Under the pieces are notes generated by a model that had not been told where the DNA came from, did no database searches, and worked only from the letters and a program-made list of their open reading frames with translations. This document shows positions 42,791-52,028 of a stretch of DNA of 57,642 nucleotides, in pieces. The translations under genes and the position numbers were made by a program. The number at the start of each line of letters is the position of its first letter. Position 1 is the stretch's first letter. The stretch lies in contig CAZQLH010000004.1 in NCBI GenBank assembly GCA_964594155.1, positions 1 through 57,642 of the forward strand, given 5' to 3'. The stretch is from an uncultured Candidatus Saccharibacteria bacterium (GTDB taxonomy: Bacteria > Patescibacteriota > Minisyncoccia > Portnoybacterales > UBA2143).

Positions 42791-43710
42791 GCATTGGCGC
42801 GACCTCTGACGGTAACGTCAGAGAGAGAATCTAGTGCTAAGCTCGCACTAGAGAGAAACTCGGCTTATATGCTGGAACCCATTTATTTGATATTTAAAAT
42901 AAATGGCAATCAGCAGGGAAGTCGTTTATAATGGAAGTATGAGATCGTTAAATACAAATCTAATTTCTAAAACCCAACAAAAGATTATTATTGGTAATAT
43001 CTTAGGAGATGGGTCTTTAGAATTTAATGGATTTCGTGGAACACGATTACAGATAAAACAATCATTGAGATATAAAGAATATGTATTTTGGTTGTATGAT
43101 CAATTAAAAGACCTTTGTATTTCTAGTCCAAAACAGAGAAAAGACAATGATCAATGGTACTTTAGTACAAAATATTTAGCAGAATTAACTATTCTTCATA
43201 GAATTTTCTATCCTAATGGTAAAAAAGTAATTCCTAAAGATATTTCGAAATTACTTATTTCACCACTAACTTTGGCAATTTGGTATATGGACGATGGTTC
43301 ATTATACTGGCGGCCAAAAGAACATAATGGTTTTAGATTATGTACTAATTGTTTTTCTGTAAAAGACACACATCGATTAAAAAATGTTTTATATGATAAT
43401 TTTGGCATAGAATCTACAGTTCAAAGAACTTCATGTAGAGGCAAAAATTATCCTAGAATATATATTGGAGTAGCAGGTAGAAATAAATTTTTGAAAGTTA
43501 TCAAATCATATATATTAAACTGTTTTTCTCATAAATTACCTCCATTATAAATTGACCCTTCAGAGACTGATCCCTTTTATGGGAGAGATAATGGGTTCTG
43601 GATAATCCAGGTTTAAACCATTATCACACGCCGAGCCCCCGTTAAATATTTTTATATTTAATTGGGTGGTGATATAGTCCAGTAGAATTTTATATTATTG
43701 AATTCTATTA
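42791..43710 (+). mobile_element. Group I intron after 16S U516 (920 nt)
   Basis: P1 CGUGC/GCGCG with U-G pair, P10 with GCCA, AATCAGCAGGG, CAGAGACT and GATATAGTCC; exons rejoin as TTCGT|GCCAG. Confidence 0.9.
42939..43550 (+). CDS. Intron-encoded LAGLIDADG endonuclease (two motifs)
   Basis: IIGNILGDGSL and LAIWYMDDGS; ATG 42939 is 6 nt after a TATAAT. Confidence 0.9.
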   Translation: MRSLNTNLISKTQQKIIIGNILGDGSLEFNGFRGTRLQIKQSLRYKEYVFWLYDQLKDLCISSPKQRKDNDQWYFSTKYLAELTILHRIFYPNGKKVIPKDISKLLISPLTLAIWYMDDGSLYWRPKEHNGFRLCTNCFSVKDTHRLKNVLYDNFGIESTVQRTSCRGKNYPRIYIGVAGRNKFLKVIKSYILNCFSHKLPPL

Positions 43711-44582
43711 GCCAGAAGCCTCGGTAATACGAAGGCCCCAAGCGTTATCCGGATTTATTGGGCGTAAAGCGTGTGTAGGCGGTTTTAATAGTGATTGGTT
43801 AAATTCCGAAGCTCAACTTCGGAGCTGCTAGTCAAACGTTAAAACTAGAGCAAGTAAGAGGCTAATGGAACTTACCAAGTAGGGGTGAAATCCGTTGATA
43901 TGGTAGGGAACACCAAAGGCGAAGGCAATTAGCTGGTACTTAGCTGACGCTGAGACACGAAAGCGTAGGTAGCGAACGGGATTAGATACCCCGGTAGTCT
44001 ACGCCGTAAACGATGTCAACTAGCCGTTTGGAGTATCGACCCTCTGAGTGGCGAAGCTAACGCGTTAAGTTGACCGCCTGGGAAGTACGGCCGCAAGGCT
44101 AAAACTCAAAGGAATAGACGGGGACTTGCACAAGCGGTGGATCATGTGGTTTAATTCGACATTACGCGAGGAACCTTACCAGGACTAGACATCCTGATGA
44201 CCGTTTACCGAAAGGTAGACTTTCTTTAGACATCAGGGTCAGGTGGTGCACGGTTGCCGTCAGCATGTGCCTTGAGGTGCTCCCTTAAATGGGTTAACAT
44301 GCGCAACCCTCGCCCTGTGTTACAAGTGTCACAGGGAACTGCCTCCGGACAGGAGGAGGAAGGCGAGGACGACGTCAAATCAGCGTGTCCCTAGATGTCC
44401 TGGGCGACACACATGATACAATGGTTAGGACAATGGGTTGCCAAACCGCAAGGTGGAGCCAATCCCATCAAACCTAGCCCCAGTTCGGATTGAGGGCTGC
44501 AACTCGCCCTCATGAAGCCGGAATCGCTAGTAATCGCAGATCAGCCACGCTGCGGTGAATACGTTCTCAAGTCTTGTACTCA

Positions 44583-45404
44583 AAAATAAATGTGCCTGGC
44601 AGCTATTATAATGCTAAATTGTTAAAATCAATTCCTCCAATATTTATTGGAGCGTAGCGAACAGACAGGTCTCGCACCGCGAGGTAGAGACTGAAGGGTC
44701 TTAGTAGCAAAAGACAGCCCTGTCATTAAAAGGATTCTTACGACCTATACGGTGAGTTATAGGGAAGTAAGCATAGTTAATAATCCGATAGGGATGCCCG
44801 GAATAGTATAAATAGTGACCCAGGGAGATCTTTGTGATATAATAGAGTTATGTTATGAAGTCACAAAGAAGTCAGCTGCGTCGTAGTAGCTCTAATTCGT
44901 TAGAGCGAAGGACAAAACCGACGGTCTCTCTAGATTATATTGTTGGTCTTACAGATGGCGAAGGATGTTTTTATGTTTGTATTAGACCGCCATACAATAA
45001 GAATGGCGGAGCAATGATTTTACTTTCGTTTTATATCAAGATGCAAGCAAAAGATAAATTTCTTTTAGAGAAGGTTAAAAATACGCTTGATTGTGGAAAT
45101 GTGTATTTCCAGAATGAAAAGCGTCCAAATCATACTCAATGTTATCGCTATACAGTTGCTTCGCATCGTGATATCTTAGGAAAGGTTATTCCATTTTTTA
45201 AGAAATATCCTTTACAAAGTACGAAAGTAAAAAACTTTAATATTTTTTGTAGTATTGCTGAAATGGTTCGCAATGGCGAACATCATAATCAAAAGGGAAT
45301 TGAAAAGATTAGATTATTAAAATCTAAAATGAATCGTCGGGCTCGCTGAGTGCGGGAAATCCGCTCGCTCAGTGGGGATTCGAAAGAACTCTACTTATCG
45401 AAAT
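44583..45404 (+). mobile_element. Group II intron after 16S A1398 (822 nt)
   Basis: Domain V CGCTGAGTGCGG-GAAA-TCCGCTCGCTCAGTG, DVI-like end in AT, GTGCC near the 5' end, EBS loop CGGTGAGT complementary to the spliced junction ACTCA|CCG. Confidence 0.8.
44855..45349 (+). CDS. Single-motif LAGLIDADG endonuclease in group II intron domain IV
   Basis: YIVGLTDGEGCF, F.I.M...D..LL..VK..L.CG.V, VIPFF.KYPL...K...F..F; stop codon lies inside domain V. Confidence 0.9.
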   Translation: MKSQRSQLRRSSSNSLERRTKPTVSLDYIVGLTDGEGCFYVCIRPPYNKNGGAMILLSFYIKMQAKDKFLLEKVKNTLDCGNVYFQNEKRPNHTQCYRYTVASHRDILGKVIPFFKKYPLQSTKVKNFNIFCSIAEMVRNGEHHNQKGIEKIRLLKSKMNRRAR

Positions 45405-45685
45405 CCGCCCGTCATATTAGGGAAGTCGGTAGTACCCGAAGTCTCTTCATTAGAAGGGCCTAAGGTAAGATCGGTGACCAGAATAAAGTCGTAACAAGGC
45501 ATGCGTAGCGGAAGCTGTGCATGGATCACCTCCTTTCTATATATTTAATATATATGGGGTGTCGATACAGGTTGAGATATAGAATTCTTATCTCAACTCG
45601 TGGGTATTGGTCTTGGAGCCCTAAATTAAGACCTGATAGTTCTAATGAACTTCATTTGGGACAACTACACGAGATTGCAACAGGA

Positions 45686-50214: not shown

Positions 50215-50276
50215 AACAGGCTAATAGCGTCTAAGAGTCCCTATCGACGACGCTGTTTGGCACCTCGATGTCGGCT

Positions 50277-51131
50277 TACCAATTTAAGATAGGCCGCTGT
50301 TGGGAGTAATCCCAACTGACAAAATTCAACTTATAACGGTGAATGCTATATAATATAGTTAATACCGTGGGAAGTTAGAGAAATTTATGAAGTTATCATA
50401 TAGACAAAAAGAAATTCTAATAGGTTCTTTATTAGGTGATGGTCATTTAGAGAAAAATGGAGATAATGTTCGTTTAAGAATAGAACATAAAGAAAATCAG
50501 GAAAATTATTTAAAATGGAAACAATTAGAATTTAAAAATTTGTCTTGTGGTAAATCAAGATTAGTTTGTAAAATTGATAAAAGAAATAATAAAATGTATA
50601 AATCTTGGCATTTTTCGACATATTCTTTAGAAATATTCAATTCTTATCAACAAAAGTTTTATAAGAATAGAATTAAAATTATTCCAAAGAATATTATAGA
50701 ATTAATGTTTTCTCCTTTGTCCTTAGCTATTTGGTTTATGGATGATGGTCATAAAAGAACTGATTGTAATGCACTAAGATTAAGTACAGATTCATTTCGG
50801 CTTTACGAACAAAAATTATTATTGAAATGTCTAAAAATAAATTTTGGAATAAATAGTAGGCTACATAAAAAGAAAGATACTTGGAATATTTATATTCCAA
50901 GTGCAGAAGCAAGAAAATTTTGTAAGATAGTAAAGCCATATATTATTCCAGAAATGAATTATAAGATTTCTTTAACCCCGTAACGACTGAGTCTATATAA
51001 GATAGACGAGATAGTGGGTACCTAATATTTAGGATTTAAACCATTATCACACGTTGAGCCCCTATTGAATAATGAACATTTAATAGGGTGATGATATAGT
51101 CTATACATGTAGTAATACGTGAAATAATATG
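50277..51131 (+). mobile_element. Group I intron after 23S U2511 (855 nt)
   Basis: P1 CGGCU/GGCCG, core blocks, terminal G; GTCGGCT|CATC. Confidence 0.9.
50387..50983 (+). CDS. Intron-encoded LAGLIDADG endonuclease (two motifs)
   Basis: ILIGSLLGDGHL and LAIWFMDDG. Confidence 0.9.
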   Translation: MKLSYRQKEILIGSLLGDGHLEKNGDNVRLRIEHKENQENYLKWKQLEFKNLSCGKSRLVCKIDKRNNKMYKSWHFSTYSLEIFNSYQQKFYKNRIKIIPKNIIELMFSPLSLAIWFMDDGHKRTDCNALRLSTDSFRLYEQKLLLKCLKINFGINSRLHKKKDTWNIYIPSAEARKFCKIVKPYIIPEMNYKISLTP

Positions 51132-51204
51132 CATCTCATCCTGGGGGTGGAGAAGCTCCCAAGGGTATGGCTGTTCGCCATTTAAAGAGGTACGTGAGCT
51201 GGGT

Positions 51205-52028
51205 AAGTGAAAATGAGCCCAGAATAAACTGACTAATAACGATGAAGTCCGTAATTTTATGCTATAATAAAGTTATATGGGTAATATCGTGGGAAGACAA
51301 AATTTTATATCTAATTTTCAAAAACAGGCCATTATCAGCTGTCTTTTAGGAGATGGGAGATTAGAGTGTAGATCAAAAAATGGAACTGCAAGATTAAGAA
51401 TTCATCATGGAGAAAAACAGAAAAATTATGTGTTTTGGAAATATGATATTTTCAAGAATATAGTTAACAGTAAGCCTAAAAGAATAGTATGGAAAGATAA
51501 AAAAAGAGATATAAATAATATATCTTGGTATTTTCATACTTCAACAATTAAAGAGTTAGGAAATTTACATTCATTGTTTTACAATAATGATAAAAAGATT
51601 TTACCTAAGAATCTTTATAATTTGTTAACACCACTGTCTTTAGCAATTTGGACAATGGATGATGGTGATAATGATAAAAATTCTATAAGGTACAATATAC
51701 AATCCTTTTCTTATAGAGAACAAAGAATGTTAATAGAATTATTAAAAAAGAAATATCAATTAAAATCGAATCTTAATAAAGATAGAAATAGTTATCGATT
51801 AAGAGTAAATAAAGAGAGTAAAACTAAATTGATTAAATTGATTAGCCCATTTATAATTCATTCAATGAAATACAAAATTTTGTCCCCGTAACGACTTAAT
51901 CATTTTAGATGATTGGGCGATAGGTGCTTAATATTTAAGATTTAAACTATCGCAATACGTCAGTCTAGTTTTTTATAAAAGAACTAGAAAGTTATAGTCT
52001 GTACTTTTAGCAATAAAAGAATAATATG
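51205..52028 (+). mobile_element. Group I intron after 23S U2584 (824 nt)
   Basis: P1 CUGGGU/GCCCAG, core blocks, terminal G; GCTGGGT|TCAGACC. Confidence 0.9.
51277..51891 (+). CDS. Intron-encoded LAGLIDADG endonuclease (two motifs)
   Basis: IISCLLGDGRL and LAIWTMDDG; N-terminus NIVGR is translated from intron core sequence. Confidence 0.9.
   Translation: MGNIVGRQNFISNFQKQAIISCLLGDGRLECRSKNGTARLRIHHGEKQKNYVFWKYDIFKNIVNSKPKRIVWKDKKRDINNISWYFHTSTIKELGNLHSLFYNNDKKILPKNLYNLLTPLSLAIWTMDDGDNDKNSIRYNIQSFSYREQRMLIELLKKKYQLKSNLNKDRNSYRLRVNKESKTKLIKLISPFIIHSMKYKILSP

Follow-up and report, generated by a model that had tools for sequence, protein, structure and literature searches.

The DNA analysed here (the window, 57,642 nt at full length) belongs to an uncultured Candidatus Saccharibacteria bacterium of the phylum Patescibacteriota (GenBank assembly GCA_964594155.1, contig CAZQLH010000004.1, here contig C4; the genome amounts to 629 kb in 20 contigs). 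It holds a single ribosomal RNA (rRNA) locus, in which the 16S gene, a tRNA gene, a gene for a membrane protein, the 23S gene and the 5S gene follow one another. The locus is interrupted by seven introns, 4,140 nt in total, and four of these carry a gene for a LAGLIDADG protein: three belong to PF03161 (E=2e-41 to 2e-45) and one to PF00961 (E=1.9e-21), and the Pfam gathering scores are passed. An earlier note on this DNA had pointed to hexamers resembling the bacterial -10 element upstream of these homing endonuclease genes (HEGs), and had proposed that intron HEGs have embedded promoters of their own, that they are expressed from separate leaderless mRNAs, and that introns without an open reading frame (ORF) keep the empty promoter. 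We find that such boxes recur at a tight spacing before the HEGs of certain intron lineages, and this pattern is probably to be read as an intron-internal extended -10 promoter giving a leaderless HEG mRNA. It is the best reading for the genes at 42939 (16S-516 intron) and 51277 (23S-2586 intron) and, with complications, for the gene at 44855 (16S-1398 intron).

An rRNA locus with seven introns and four endonuclease genes

All six hexamers are present at exactly the coordinates claimed for them (Table 1). A perfect TATAAT begins at 42927, 44838, 50349 and 51263; an upstream TG is found at 44835, 51260 and 49293 and is missing at 42927 and 50349, and only weak matches to a -35 element were found. 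The hexamers of the 1951, 2449 and 2500 introns do lie in the same place, namely in the P5 hairpin between P4 (ACGGTG) and P4' (ACCGT) of the Rfam alignment, and the fold of the 2586 intron puts its hexamer there as well. Since the window as a whole contains 51 copies of TATAAT and six of TGnTATAAT in 57.6 kb at 34% GC, lone hexamers are weak evidence.

The distance from box to start codon separates the four genes. It is 6 nt at 42939 and 8 nt at 51277, so that a separate leaderless mRNA is the best reading for these two; at 44855 the case is ambiguous, because the 6-nt spacing leads to a mini-ORF at 44850, and at 50387 the proposal fails, because the hexamer is 32 nt from the ATG and the 2500 gene is thus not leaderless. 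An active P5 box in the 2500 intron would give the HEG mRNA a leader of about 26 nt. In some homologues a P5 box lies 31–37 nt before the L6 ATG, and an extended -10 is present in only 8/22. For the 16S-516 gene a further in-frame ATG at 42903 is missing in the homologue L003, and 42939 is the conserved start.

Table 1. Positions in the window of the rRNA genes, their introns, the endonuclease genes and the -10-like motifs
Feature	Position	Strand	Details
16S rRNA gene	42302..45530		
Group I intron, 16S ~position 516	42792..43711	+	boundaries +/-1 nt; CAGCAGGGAAG-type P4'/P6 core; ORF in loop L6
-10 box TATAAT	42927..42932	+	in L6 just after the P6 5' strand; 6 nt to ATG 42939; predicted +1 = A42939
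LAGLIDADG_2 HEG	42939..43550	+	203 aa; PF03161, E=2.4e-41
Group II-like intron without reverse transcriptase (RT), 16S after position 1398	44583..45404	+	
Extended -10 box TGATATAAT	44835..44843	+	loop of hairpin CTTTGTGA...TCACAAAG; 6 nt to mini-ORF ATG
TTATG-TTATG, 5-nt tandem duplication	44848..44857	+	source of the mini-ORF; read from sequence
LAGLIDADG_1 HEG	44855..45349	+	164 aa; PF00961, E=1.9e-21
23S rRNA gene	46899..52300		
Group I intron without ORF, 23S ~1931	48984..49207	+	CAGCAGGGAAG-type; Rfam RF00028 83.9 bits; boundaries against E. coli 23S
Group I intron without ORF, 23S ~1951	49228..49477	+	ACCGTGGGAAG-type; RF00028 48.1 bits, E=8e-11
TGGTATAAT	49293..49301	+	P5 hairpin loop of the 1951 intron
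Group I intron without ORF, 23S ~2449	49970..50214	+	RF00028 40.2 bits, E=1.8e-8; exon-U/omega-G boundaries
TACAAT	50041..50046	+	2449 intron, in its short P5 loop; TG absent
Group I intron, 23S ~2500	50277..51131	+	ORF in L6; core ATAACGGTGAA...AATACCGTGGGAAG
TATAAT	50349..50354	+	P5 loop (CTATA-TAA-TATAG) of the 2500 intron; 32 nt upstream of ATG 50387
LAGLIDADG_2 HEG	50387..50983	+	198 aa; PF03161, E=2e-45
Group I intron, 23S ~2586	51205..52028	+	ORF from the P5 3' strand via P4' and P6 into L6
Extended -10 box TGCTATAAT	51260..51268	+	P5 terminal loop and upper stem; 8 nt to ATG 51277
LAGLIDADG_2 HEG	51277..51891	+	204 aa; PF03161, E=3.4e-44; ATG predicted to be paired at the P5 foot

Three sources served to set the intron boundaries: the Rfam alignment of the rRNA, comparison with the E. 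coli 23S under the exon-U and omega-G rule, and RNA contigs. Around the 16S-516 intron the Rfam small-subunit match is broken into 42302–42817 and 43577–44638, and an RNA contig match ends at 42792, the intron start; the core of this intron, CAGCAGGGAAGTC...GACCC(T/C)TCAGAGACT, is common to the 1931 intron, which Rfam scores. Relative to the gathering score of 50 for RF00028, the 1931 intron lies above and the 1951 and 2449 introns below (E 8e-11 and 2e-8). The ORF-bearing group I introns are not scored by Rfam, but they share the P4-P5-P4'-P6 and GATATAGTC core strings. The 16S-1398 intron is defined by a splice joint, 44582|45405, in a metatranscriptome contig (run X16), which gives its 5' end as AAAATAAAT, 9 nt before GTGCC, and its 3' end as ...GAAAT. 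The sole Rfam intron model to match it is group-II-D1D4-1, at 44834–44913 (38.8 bits, gathering score 35); the domain V/VI model RF00029 gave no match at E<=1. The GTGCC resembles the group II 5' consensus, and the element is of the type '16IS9' of Tsurumaki 2024, there termed 'group II intron-like' (PMC11270868).

Boxes before intron-borne start codons in related genomes

A profile of the three LAGLIDADG_2 proteins of the window was searched in 401 genomes of the class, and homologues were found in 69 of them. The start codon assigned to each HEG was the in-frame ATG closest to position 1 of the profile, and a -10 box was defined as TAnnnT with at most one mismatch to TATAAT, ending 5–9 nt before the start. 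By this definition 33 of the 84 HEGs of this first set (set 1) have a box, 25 of the 33 with TG one base upstream and 15 with a perfect TATAAT, compared to a mean of 3.5 (maximum 13 in 2000) in shuffles of the 40 upstream nucleotides, or 0.19 when TG is included. Of the remaining ATGs in this DNA, 1,949 in number, 3.4% are preceded by a box of this kind. The distances from box to start peak sharply at 6 nt (14 cases) and 7 nt (9 cases). The result was the same in kind for set 2, a scan of a one-genome-per-species collection that yielded 87 further HEGs after 6 duplicates were dropped and that is skewed to relatives of the window genes, with records named Gottesmanbacteria, Nealsonbacteria, Yanofskybacteria and Kerfeldbacteria included: 39 of the 87 have a box, compared to 3.3 expected, 29 of them with TG, at a spacing of 6 nt in 22 cases and 7 nt in 12. 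Chance in AT-rich DNA is ruled out by the shuffles and by the control with other ATGs.

The presence of a box differs with the place of the start codon in the ribozyme. Where the start lies in the 3' strand of P5, with the ATG 9 nt before P4' (hereafter P5-start), the box is found in 24/30 HEGs of set 1 and 24/29 of set 2 (48/59), with the TG extension in 22 of the 24 boxed HEGs in each set. Starts in L6 of CAGCAGGGAAG-type introns have it without exception (8/8 and 11/11, together 19/19), 5–7 nt before the start, and starts in L6 of ACCGTGGGAAG-type introns have it seldom (1/25 and 4/16). ORFs in the P9 region have none, in 16 and 18 cases. The window gene at 51277 is of the first of these classes, that at 42939 of the second and that at 50387 of the third. 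Motifs resembling a Shine-Dalgarno (SD) sequence precede 1/30 P5-start and 0/8 CAGCAGGGAAG-type L6 HEGs of set 1. The embedded promoter cannot thus be upheld as a general property of intron HEGs, as first proposed, given 0/34 for those located in P9; -10 boxes are a property of certain intron and HEG lineages, not of all.

A logo anchored on the ATG is blurred by spacing variation of 6–9 nt, and the motif was also sought with a Gibbs sampler, without prior, on the P5 inserts. The sampler returned RTGnTAWAAT in 27/27 P5-start introns, with the T present in 24, the G in 22 and each base of T-A-W-A-A-T in 25–27 of the 27. P5-start introns with a box come from at least 22 genera and at least 15 families, and also from records named Gottesman-, Nealson- and Paceibacterota. 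Compared across relatives, the box is intact in these 15 or more families while the flanking P5 sequence is almost wholly diverged, and a conserved box in diverged flanks points to purifying selection. This bears on the idea that the boxes are inert remnants of free-standing HEG cassettes, kept by recent invasion, with the HEGs silent or read from the rRNA transcript. The L6 promoter and ORF of the type found in the Candidate Phyla Radiation (CPR) do look like one inserted unit, and some pseudogene HEGs keep the box: L017 (G141:C13), L010 (G376:C8) and several LAGLIDADG_1 loci have in-frame stops or truncation with the -10 box still present. Against such an origin stand the conservation just described, the open frames of most homologues, and the P5-start promoters, which are interwoven with the ribozyme core and would therefore have evolved in place. 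We regard inert remnants as very improbable.

Two further observations concern the collections themselves. A 1.2-kb contig binned as 'Nanoarchaeota archaeon' (L141, JAUSIK010000021.1) carries a bacterial group I intron of CAGCAGGGAAG-type with TGGTATAAT 6 nt before an ATG, and is probably a mis-binned Patescibacteria rRNA fragment. In a hold-out set from other classes of the phylum, single TGA codons occur in some HEG frames, which may belong to lineages reading TGA as an amino acid.

The 16S-1398 intron offers the same box in a different RNA and before a different protein. The mini-ORF ATG-TTA-TGA reported there is confirmed at 44850–44858, with its stop overlapping the HEG ATG (ATGA). Homologues of this LAGLIDADG_1 HEG occur in 88/401 genomes of the class. 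In the closest relatives, L074 and L075, the TTATG duplication is absent and the box stands directly before the HEG's own ATG (TGATATAAT at 7 nt and TGATAAAAT at 6 nt, respectively); in a different branch (L073, L076 and L077) the box (TGnTAAAAT) and the ATG are both shifted to the next hairpin, still 6 nt apart, and in remoter homologues the first hairpin still has TATAAT, with the ATG about 65 nt further on. In the window the duplication places the HEG start 5 nt further from the -10 box. This may be a lesion of recent date, or a variant that down-regulates the HEG, and expression of the 44855 HEG would need reinitiation or a 5-nt leader. Because the box is found with starts in P5, in L6 and in two hairpins of a group II-like intron, it is tied to the ATG and not to a fixed site of the ribozyme; wherever in these structures the start codon lies, and in either of two unrelated endonuclease families, the box goes with it.

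Ribozyme structure and the ORF-less introns

Folds predicted for the P5-start introns pair the ATG into the foot of P5 (75/81 nt) and place the hexamer mostly in the terminal loop and the upper 3' stem (64/162 nt paired). The P5 stem sequences vary between genomes in a compensatory manner in these folds. In the longer hairpins of L061, L053 and L005 the box is outside the terminal loop, yet 6–8 nt from the ATG. In 26/28 ORF-bearing introns the HEG shares its frame with an ATG at the P5 foot; such an ATG is found in 0/16 introns classed as ORF-less, and is present in two further introns without a detectable ORF (L013 and L059).

An extended -10 is present in P5 in 21/27 P5-start, 8/22 L6-start and 4/16 ORF-less introns, compared to 0.4–0.6 per group in shuffles. 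The difference between P5-start and ORF-less introns is significant (Fisher p=0.0012), with a chance expectation of 0.39 for the latter. The claim that ORF-less introns keep the empty promoter thus stands in part: the 1951 intron and the 4/16 compared to about 0.4 expected speak for it, whereas the 2449 intron does not, and 12/16 ORF-less introns are without the box. Since those 12 belong to the same family, the ribozyme does not need the motif; the motif is needed by the ORF.

These comparisons also bear on the reading of the hexamers as by-products of ribozyme structure, that is, of AT-rich P5 loops and stems or of a tertiary-contact loop, with the spacing set by a fixed length of the P5 stem. 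Several observations suit it. The 1951, 2449, 2500 and 2586 hexamers are all in the P5 hairpin, the motif usually sits in the terminal loop of P5-start introns with its last 2 nt paired, and the J8/7-P7 core GATGATATAGTC mimics TGnTATAGT, so that RNA constraints can yield look-alikes. TAWAAT (27/27) is moreover more invariant than typical promoters, and an extra RNA-level constraint on the P5 hexamer is possible. However, a structural by-product would not account for the 12 ORF-less introns without a motif, for the boxes of L061, L053 and L005 that leave the terminal loop and keep their distance from the ATG, or for the same box and spacing in the unstructured L6 (19/19), in either hairpin of the group II-like intron and upstream of about 58 genes of the host. 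Nor would it account for the decay of a box after ORF loss, as it appears in L040: here the ORF-less L019, at another site, retains TGGTATAAT, and compared with it the box of its relative L040, TGGTAATAAT, looks like one that has decayed. An explanation of the hexamer wholly by RNA structure, which the earlier note had set against its own proposal, is thus at odds with the ORF-less and L6 introns, and we consider it unlikely.

For the single ORF-less introns of the window the verdicts differ. The P3-P6 cores of the 1951 and 2500 introns are near-identical over about 75 nt, save for a 5-nt TATGG indel in the region of the box, and the 1951 box is therefore likely a relic, or 'empty', promoter or of shared origin. 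The near-identity extends over the P3-P4-P5-P4'-P6 cores (49270–49345 compared to 50325–50395), the rest of the two introns being far less alike, a pattern suggestive of gene conversion, or of a recent transposition, from one site to another of the same 23S gene. The TACAAT of the 2449 intron was rejected as a relic promoter: it has no TG and is not separable from chance, hexamers with at most one mismatch being found in 9/16 ORF-less P5 hairpins compared to 5.6 expected. In the ORF-less 1931 intron, which is of CAGCAGGGAAG-type, no -10 box was found in L6, as expected if box and ORF, which sit together in that loop, are lost together.

Two sequence elements of these introns stand apart from the boxes before start codons. 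The J8/7-P7 core GATGATATAGTC (43669–43680 and 51090–51100 in the window, and many loci) reads as an extended -10, TGATATAGT; P9-located HEG ORFs begin 50–75 nt downstream of it with no other box, and a 'far' box of this kind is seen in 9/16. This may be a coincidence, or a promoter for the P9-located ORFs. In addition, an intron subfamily (L009:2742, L011:2358, L021, L023:2688, L053:1484 and others) has a long P5 extension with a conserved TA(T/C)AAT-N4-5-CTTGAGGACC. This composite element, which may be a promoter or an RNA motif, occurs in members that lack an ORF as well as in others that carry a LAGLIDADG_1-like ORF, and that ORF seems to start at the GTG inside P4'.

Signs of leaderless initiation in the host, the proposed mechanism and its precedents

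Leaderless genes are recognised in silico, by an accepted criterion, from a TANNNT about 12 bp ahead of the start codon (Zheng et al. 2011, PMC3160421). Among 395 long host ORFs, -10 boxes ahead of the first ATG peak at a spacing of 6, 7 and 8 nt (25, 18 and 15 cases, compared to about 4.5 per position), so that a box at spacing 6–8 precedes 58 of the 395, compared to a background of about 14; this corresponds to about 11% of long ORFs. The box is extended in 16 of the 58. The host SD signal is weak, with the motifs only slightly enriched. These results suggest that the host lineage relies substantially on leaderless initiation; a full-text search found no literature linking Patescibacteria with leaderless mRNAs. 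The boxed HEGs share this layout with the host genes. The TG extension is far commoner at HEGs than at host genes, which fits promoters that cannot have a -35 element, because the DNA upstream of the HEG boxes is ribozyme core.

From these observations we infer that the boxes are active promoters, that transcription starts on the A of the start codon and that translation is leaderless. The promoter inside the intron would be of the sigma-70 type, an extended -10 TGnTAWAAT for which a -35 box is dispensable. Placed 6–8 nt before the ATG, it would let RNA polymerase begin on the A of the start codon and yield a leaderless mRNA. In the 2586 type, one stretch of about 45 nt would encode the P5 helix, the promoter (P5 loop and 3' upper stem) and the start of the ORF, whose start codon and first seven or so codons would lie in the P5 3' strand, P4' and P6. 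The RNA made from this promoter would be without P1 through the 5' strand of P5 and therefore could not fold as a ribozyme, and its 5'-terminal AUG would be open to the ribosome. In the pre-rRNA or the excised intron, by contrast, the AUG would be paired at the P5 foot with no SD sequence, and for both of these reasons it should be silent there. That the HEGs are expressed in this way rather than from the pre-rRNA, as had been proposed, we likewise infer. In the 16S-516 type, promoter and ORF would stand together in loop L6 like an inserted cassette, and masking by P5 does not extend to this cassette at 42939.

A wider form of the idea, to which we give about even chances, is that some 45 bp are read in three ways: as P5 helix in RNA, as extended -10 promoter in DNA, and as 5'-terminal AUG with the first codons in mRNA. 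Transcription initiation would then decide whether rRNA intron or endonuclease mRNA is produced, and the arrangement could be a general Patescibacteria route for selfish genes inside rRNA operons, tuned to the leaderless translation of their hosts. Strong read-through from rRNA transcription might throttle the internal promoter by occlusion, and endonuclease expression would in that case be inverse to growth.

The motif might instead act as RNA, either as an A/U-rich, SD-independent landing site for ribosomes or as a binding site for the LAGLIDADG protein as maturase or autoregulator. Its link to the presence of an ORF would be expected in that case too, and SD motifs are absent at the HEGs and weak in the host. 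Fungal mitochondria are known to have LAGLIDADG maturases that bind the P4-P6 domain. The T4 enzyme I-TevI binds an operator that overlaps its own promoter (PMC2988022). However, an A/U enhancer would leave unexplained why T-G is conserved at -15/-14, why the sigma-70 contacts T-12, A-11 and T-7 are invariant and why the spacing is tuned to 6–7 nt. In the folded intron, moreover, the AUG is predicted to be paired. The motif is common to the unrelated PF03161 and PF00961 HEGs and to group I and group II-like introns, and since two unrelated families share it a protein-specific binding site is unlikely. A role as RNA is in our view improbable, to about the same degree as a structural by-product.

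Several observations weigh against the promoter reading, besides the J8/7-P7 look-alikes and the unusual invariance of TAWAAT described above. In the hold-out set the tight spacing is found in only 3/31 HEGs compared to 1.1 expected, with several P5 boxes at 14–25 nt, so that the rule is specific to lineage and arrangement; this result and the 0/34 of P9-located ORFs rule out universality of the box. Roughly half of the HEGs are without a box, among them the L6 starts of ACCGTGGGAAG-type introns (5/41 with a box) and the P9-located genes, so that a HEG does not need the box in order to persist. The homologues are related and the counts not independent, the motif being present in 20/53 clusters at 60% protein identity and in 6/15 at 45%. 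The 16S-1398 copy is ambiguous, as a mini-ORF of two codons, and not the HEG, begins with the ATG at the +1 distance.

The RNA evidence belongs on the same side. Public metatranscriptomes of the source study consist of assembled contigs only, whose 5' ends are not informative, and from these contigs no transcription starts could be mapped. RNA depth in the 16S introns is 0. A contig of 153 nt from run X17 (51354–51506, depth 5.3, no mismatch) lies inside the 2586 HEG ORF; it could equally derive from pre-rRNA, excised intron or DNA. For comparison, ordinary genes of the organism gave 4 similar contigs in 17.5 kb (depth 2.8–6.6), and rRNA exons reach depths of 100–900. In a search restricted to the HEG no further RNA run matched.

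With regard to transcription of the locus itself, the gene between the tRNA and the 23S (45895–46587) encodes a membrane protein of 230 amino acids with a mechanosensitive-channel transmembrane helix (PF05552), and upstream of the 23S a promoter-like site, TTGACA-17-TAATAT (46647–46675), is followed by a terminator-like hairpin (46762–46785). On the strength of these two elements, 16S and 23S-5S may be separate transcription units.

The closest precedent for the favoured promoter reading is found in phage T4, whose intron HEGs have mapped internal promoters and whose long transcripts hide the ribosome-binding site (Edgell, Gibb and Belfort 2010, PMC2988022). The likeness lies in a promoter within a group I intron just upstream of a co-oriented HEG, nested in the transcription unit of the host gene, which here is read from the DNA; a start masked by RNA folding in the long transcript and accessible in the short one may be a second likeness, predicted here from folds. 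The differences are equally clear. The T4 promoters are phage-specific (MotA/AsiA- or gp55-dependent) and give an mRNA with leader and SD sequence, whereas a housekeeping extended -10 and a leaderless mRNA are predicted here; the T4 host gene encodes a phage protein, whereas here it is rRNA in a cellular genome. In the 2586 type, moreover, the promoter would lie inside a core helix of the ribozyme, P5, with the start of the ORF belonging to P5 and P4'. For T4 the transcription starts come from experimental mapping, and those proposed here are predicted from sequence.

Leaderless genes are established in Actinobacteria and Deinococcus-Thermus (PMC3160421; de Groot et al. 2014, PMC4007540; Cortes et al. 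2013, PMC3898074). The HEGs with a close box resemble them in having the first T of the -10 element 12–14 nt before the ATG, no SD sequence and a predicted +1 on the A. Those are ordinary chromosomal genes, whereas here a mobile element in rRNA introns is concerned, with TGn in 22/24 compared to 16/58 host genes. Twin-ribozyme introns in nuclear rDNA (Didymium, Naegleria) face the same problem, namely how an element set within rRNA can give a HEG mRNA fit for translation, and there the 5' end of this mRNA is made by a lariat-capping ribozyme. That end arises by RNA processing of an RNA polymerase I transcript, whereas a separate promoter is predicted here. The introns themselves are the same objects as the CPR rRNA insertions described before, which comprise group I introns and group II-like, RT-less ones at 16S 1400 (Brown et al. 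2015; Tsurumaki et al. 2022, 2024, PMC11270868). Many of these insertions encode LAGLIDADG enzymes and are removed from the rRNA (PMC11270868).

How a protein gene buried in a bacterial rRNA precursor is expressed is a question that the CPR survey and the group I review leave largely unaddressed: the words promoter, leaderless, Shine-Dalgarno and start codon are absent from the 2024 survey (PMC11270868), as is the word 'promoter' from a 2014 review of bacterial group I introns (PMC3984707), and a full-text literature search combining these topics found nothing relevant. If the boxes are active, a separate leaderless mRNA would be a simple and testable answer. Ribozyme helix, promoter and coding start would then overlap in the same DNA, several internal promoters in CPR rRNA operons would fire into rRNA, and the box would provide a criterion to tell recently ORF-deleted introns from old ORF-less ones. 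The boxes may also supply compact modules of promoter and leaderless start for the Patescibacteria, which are still poorly tractable. For the biology of these introns, active boxes would mean that a mobile element has adapted to the unusual translation initiation of its host lineage.

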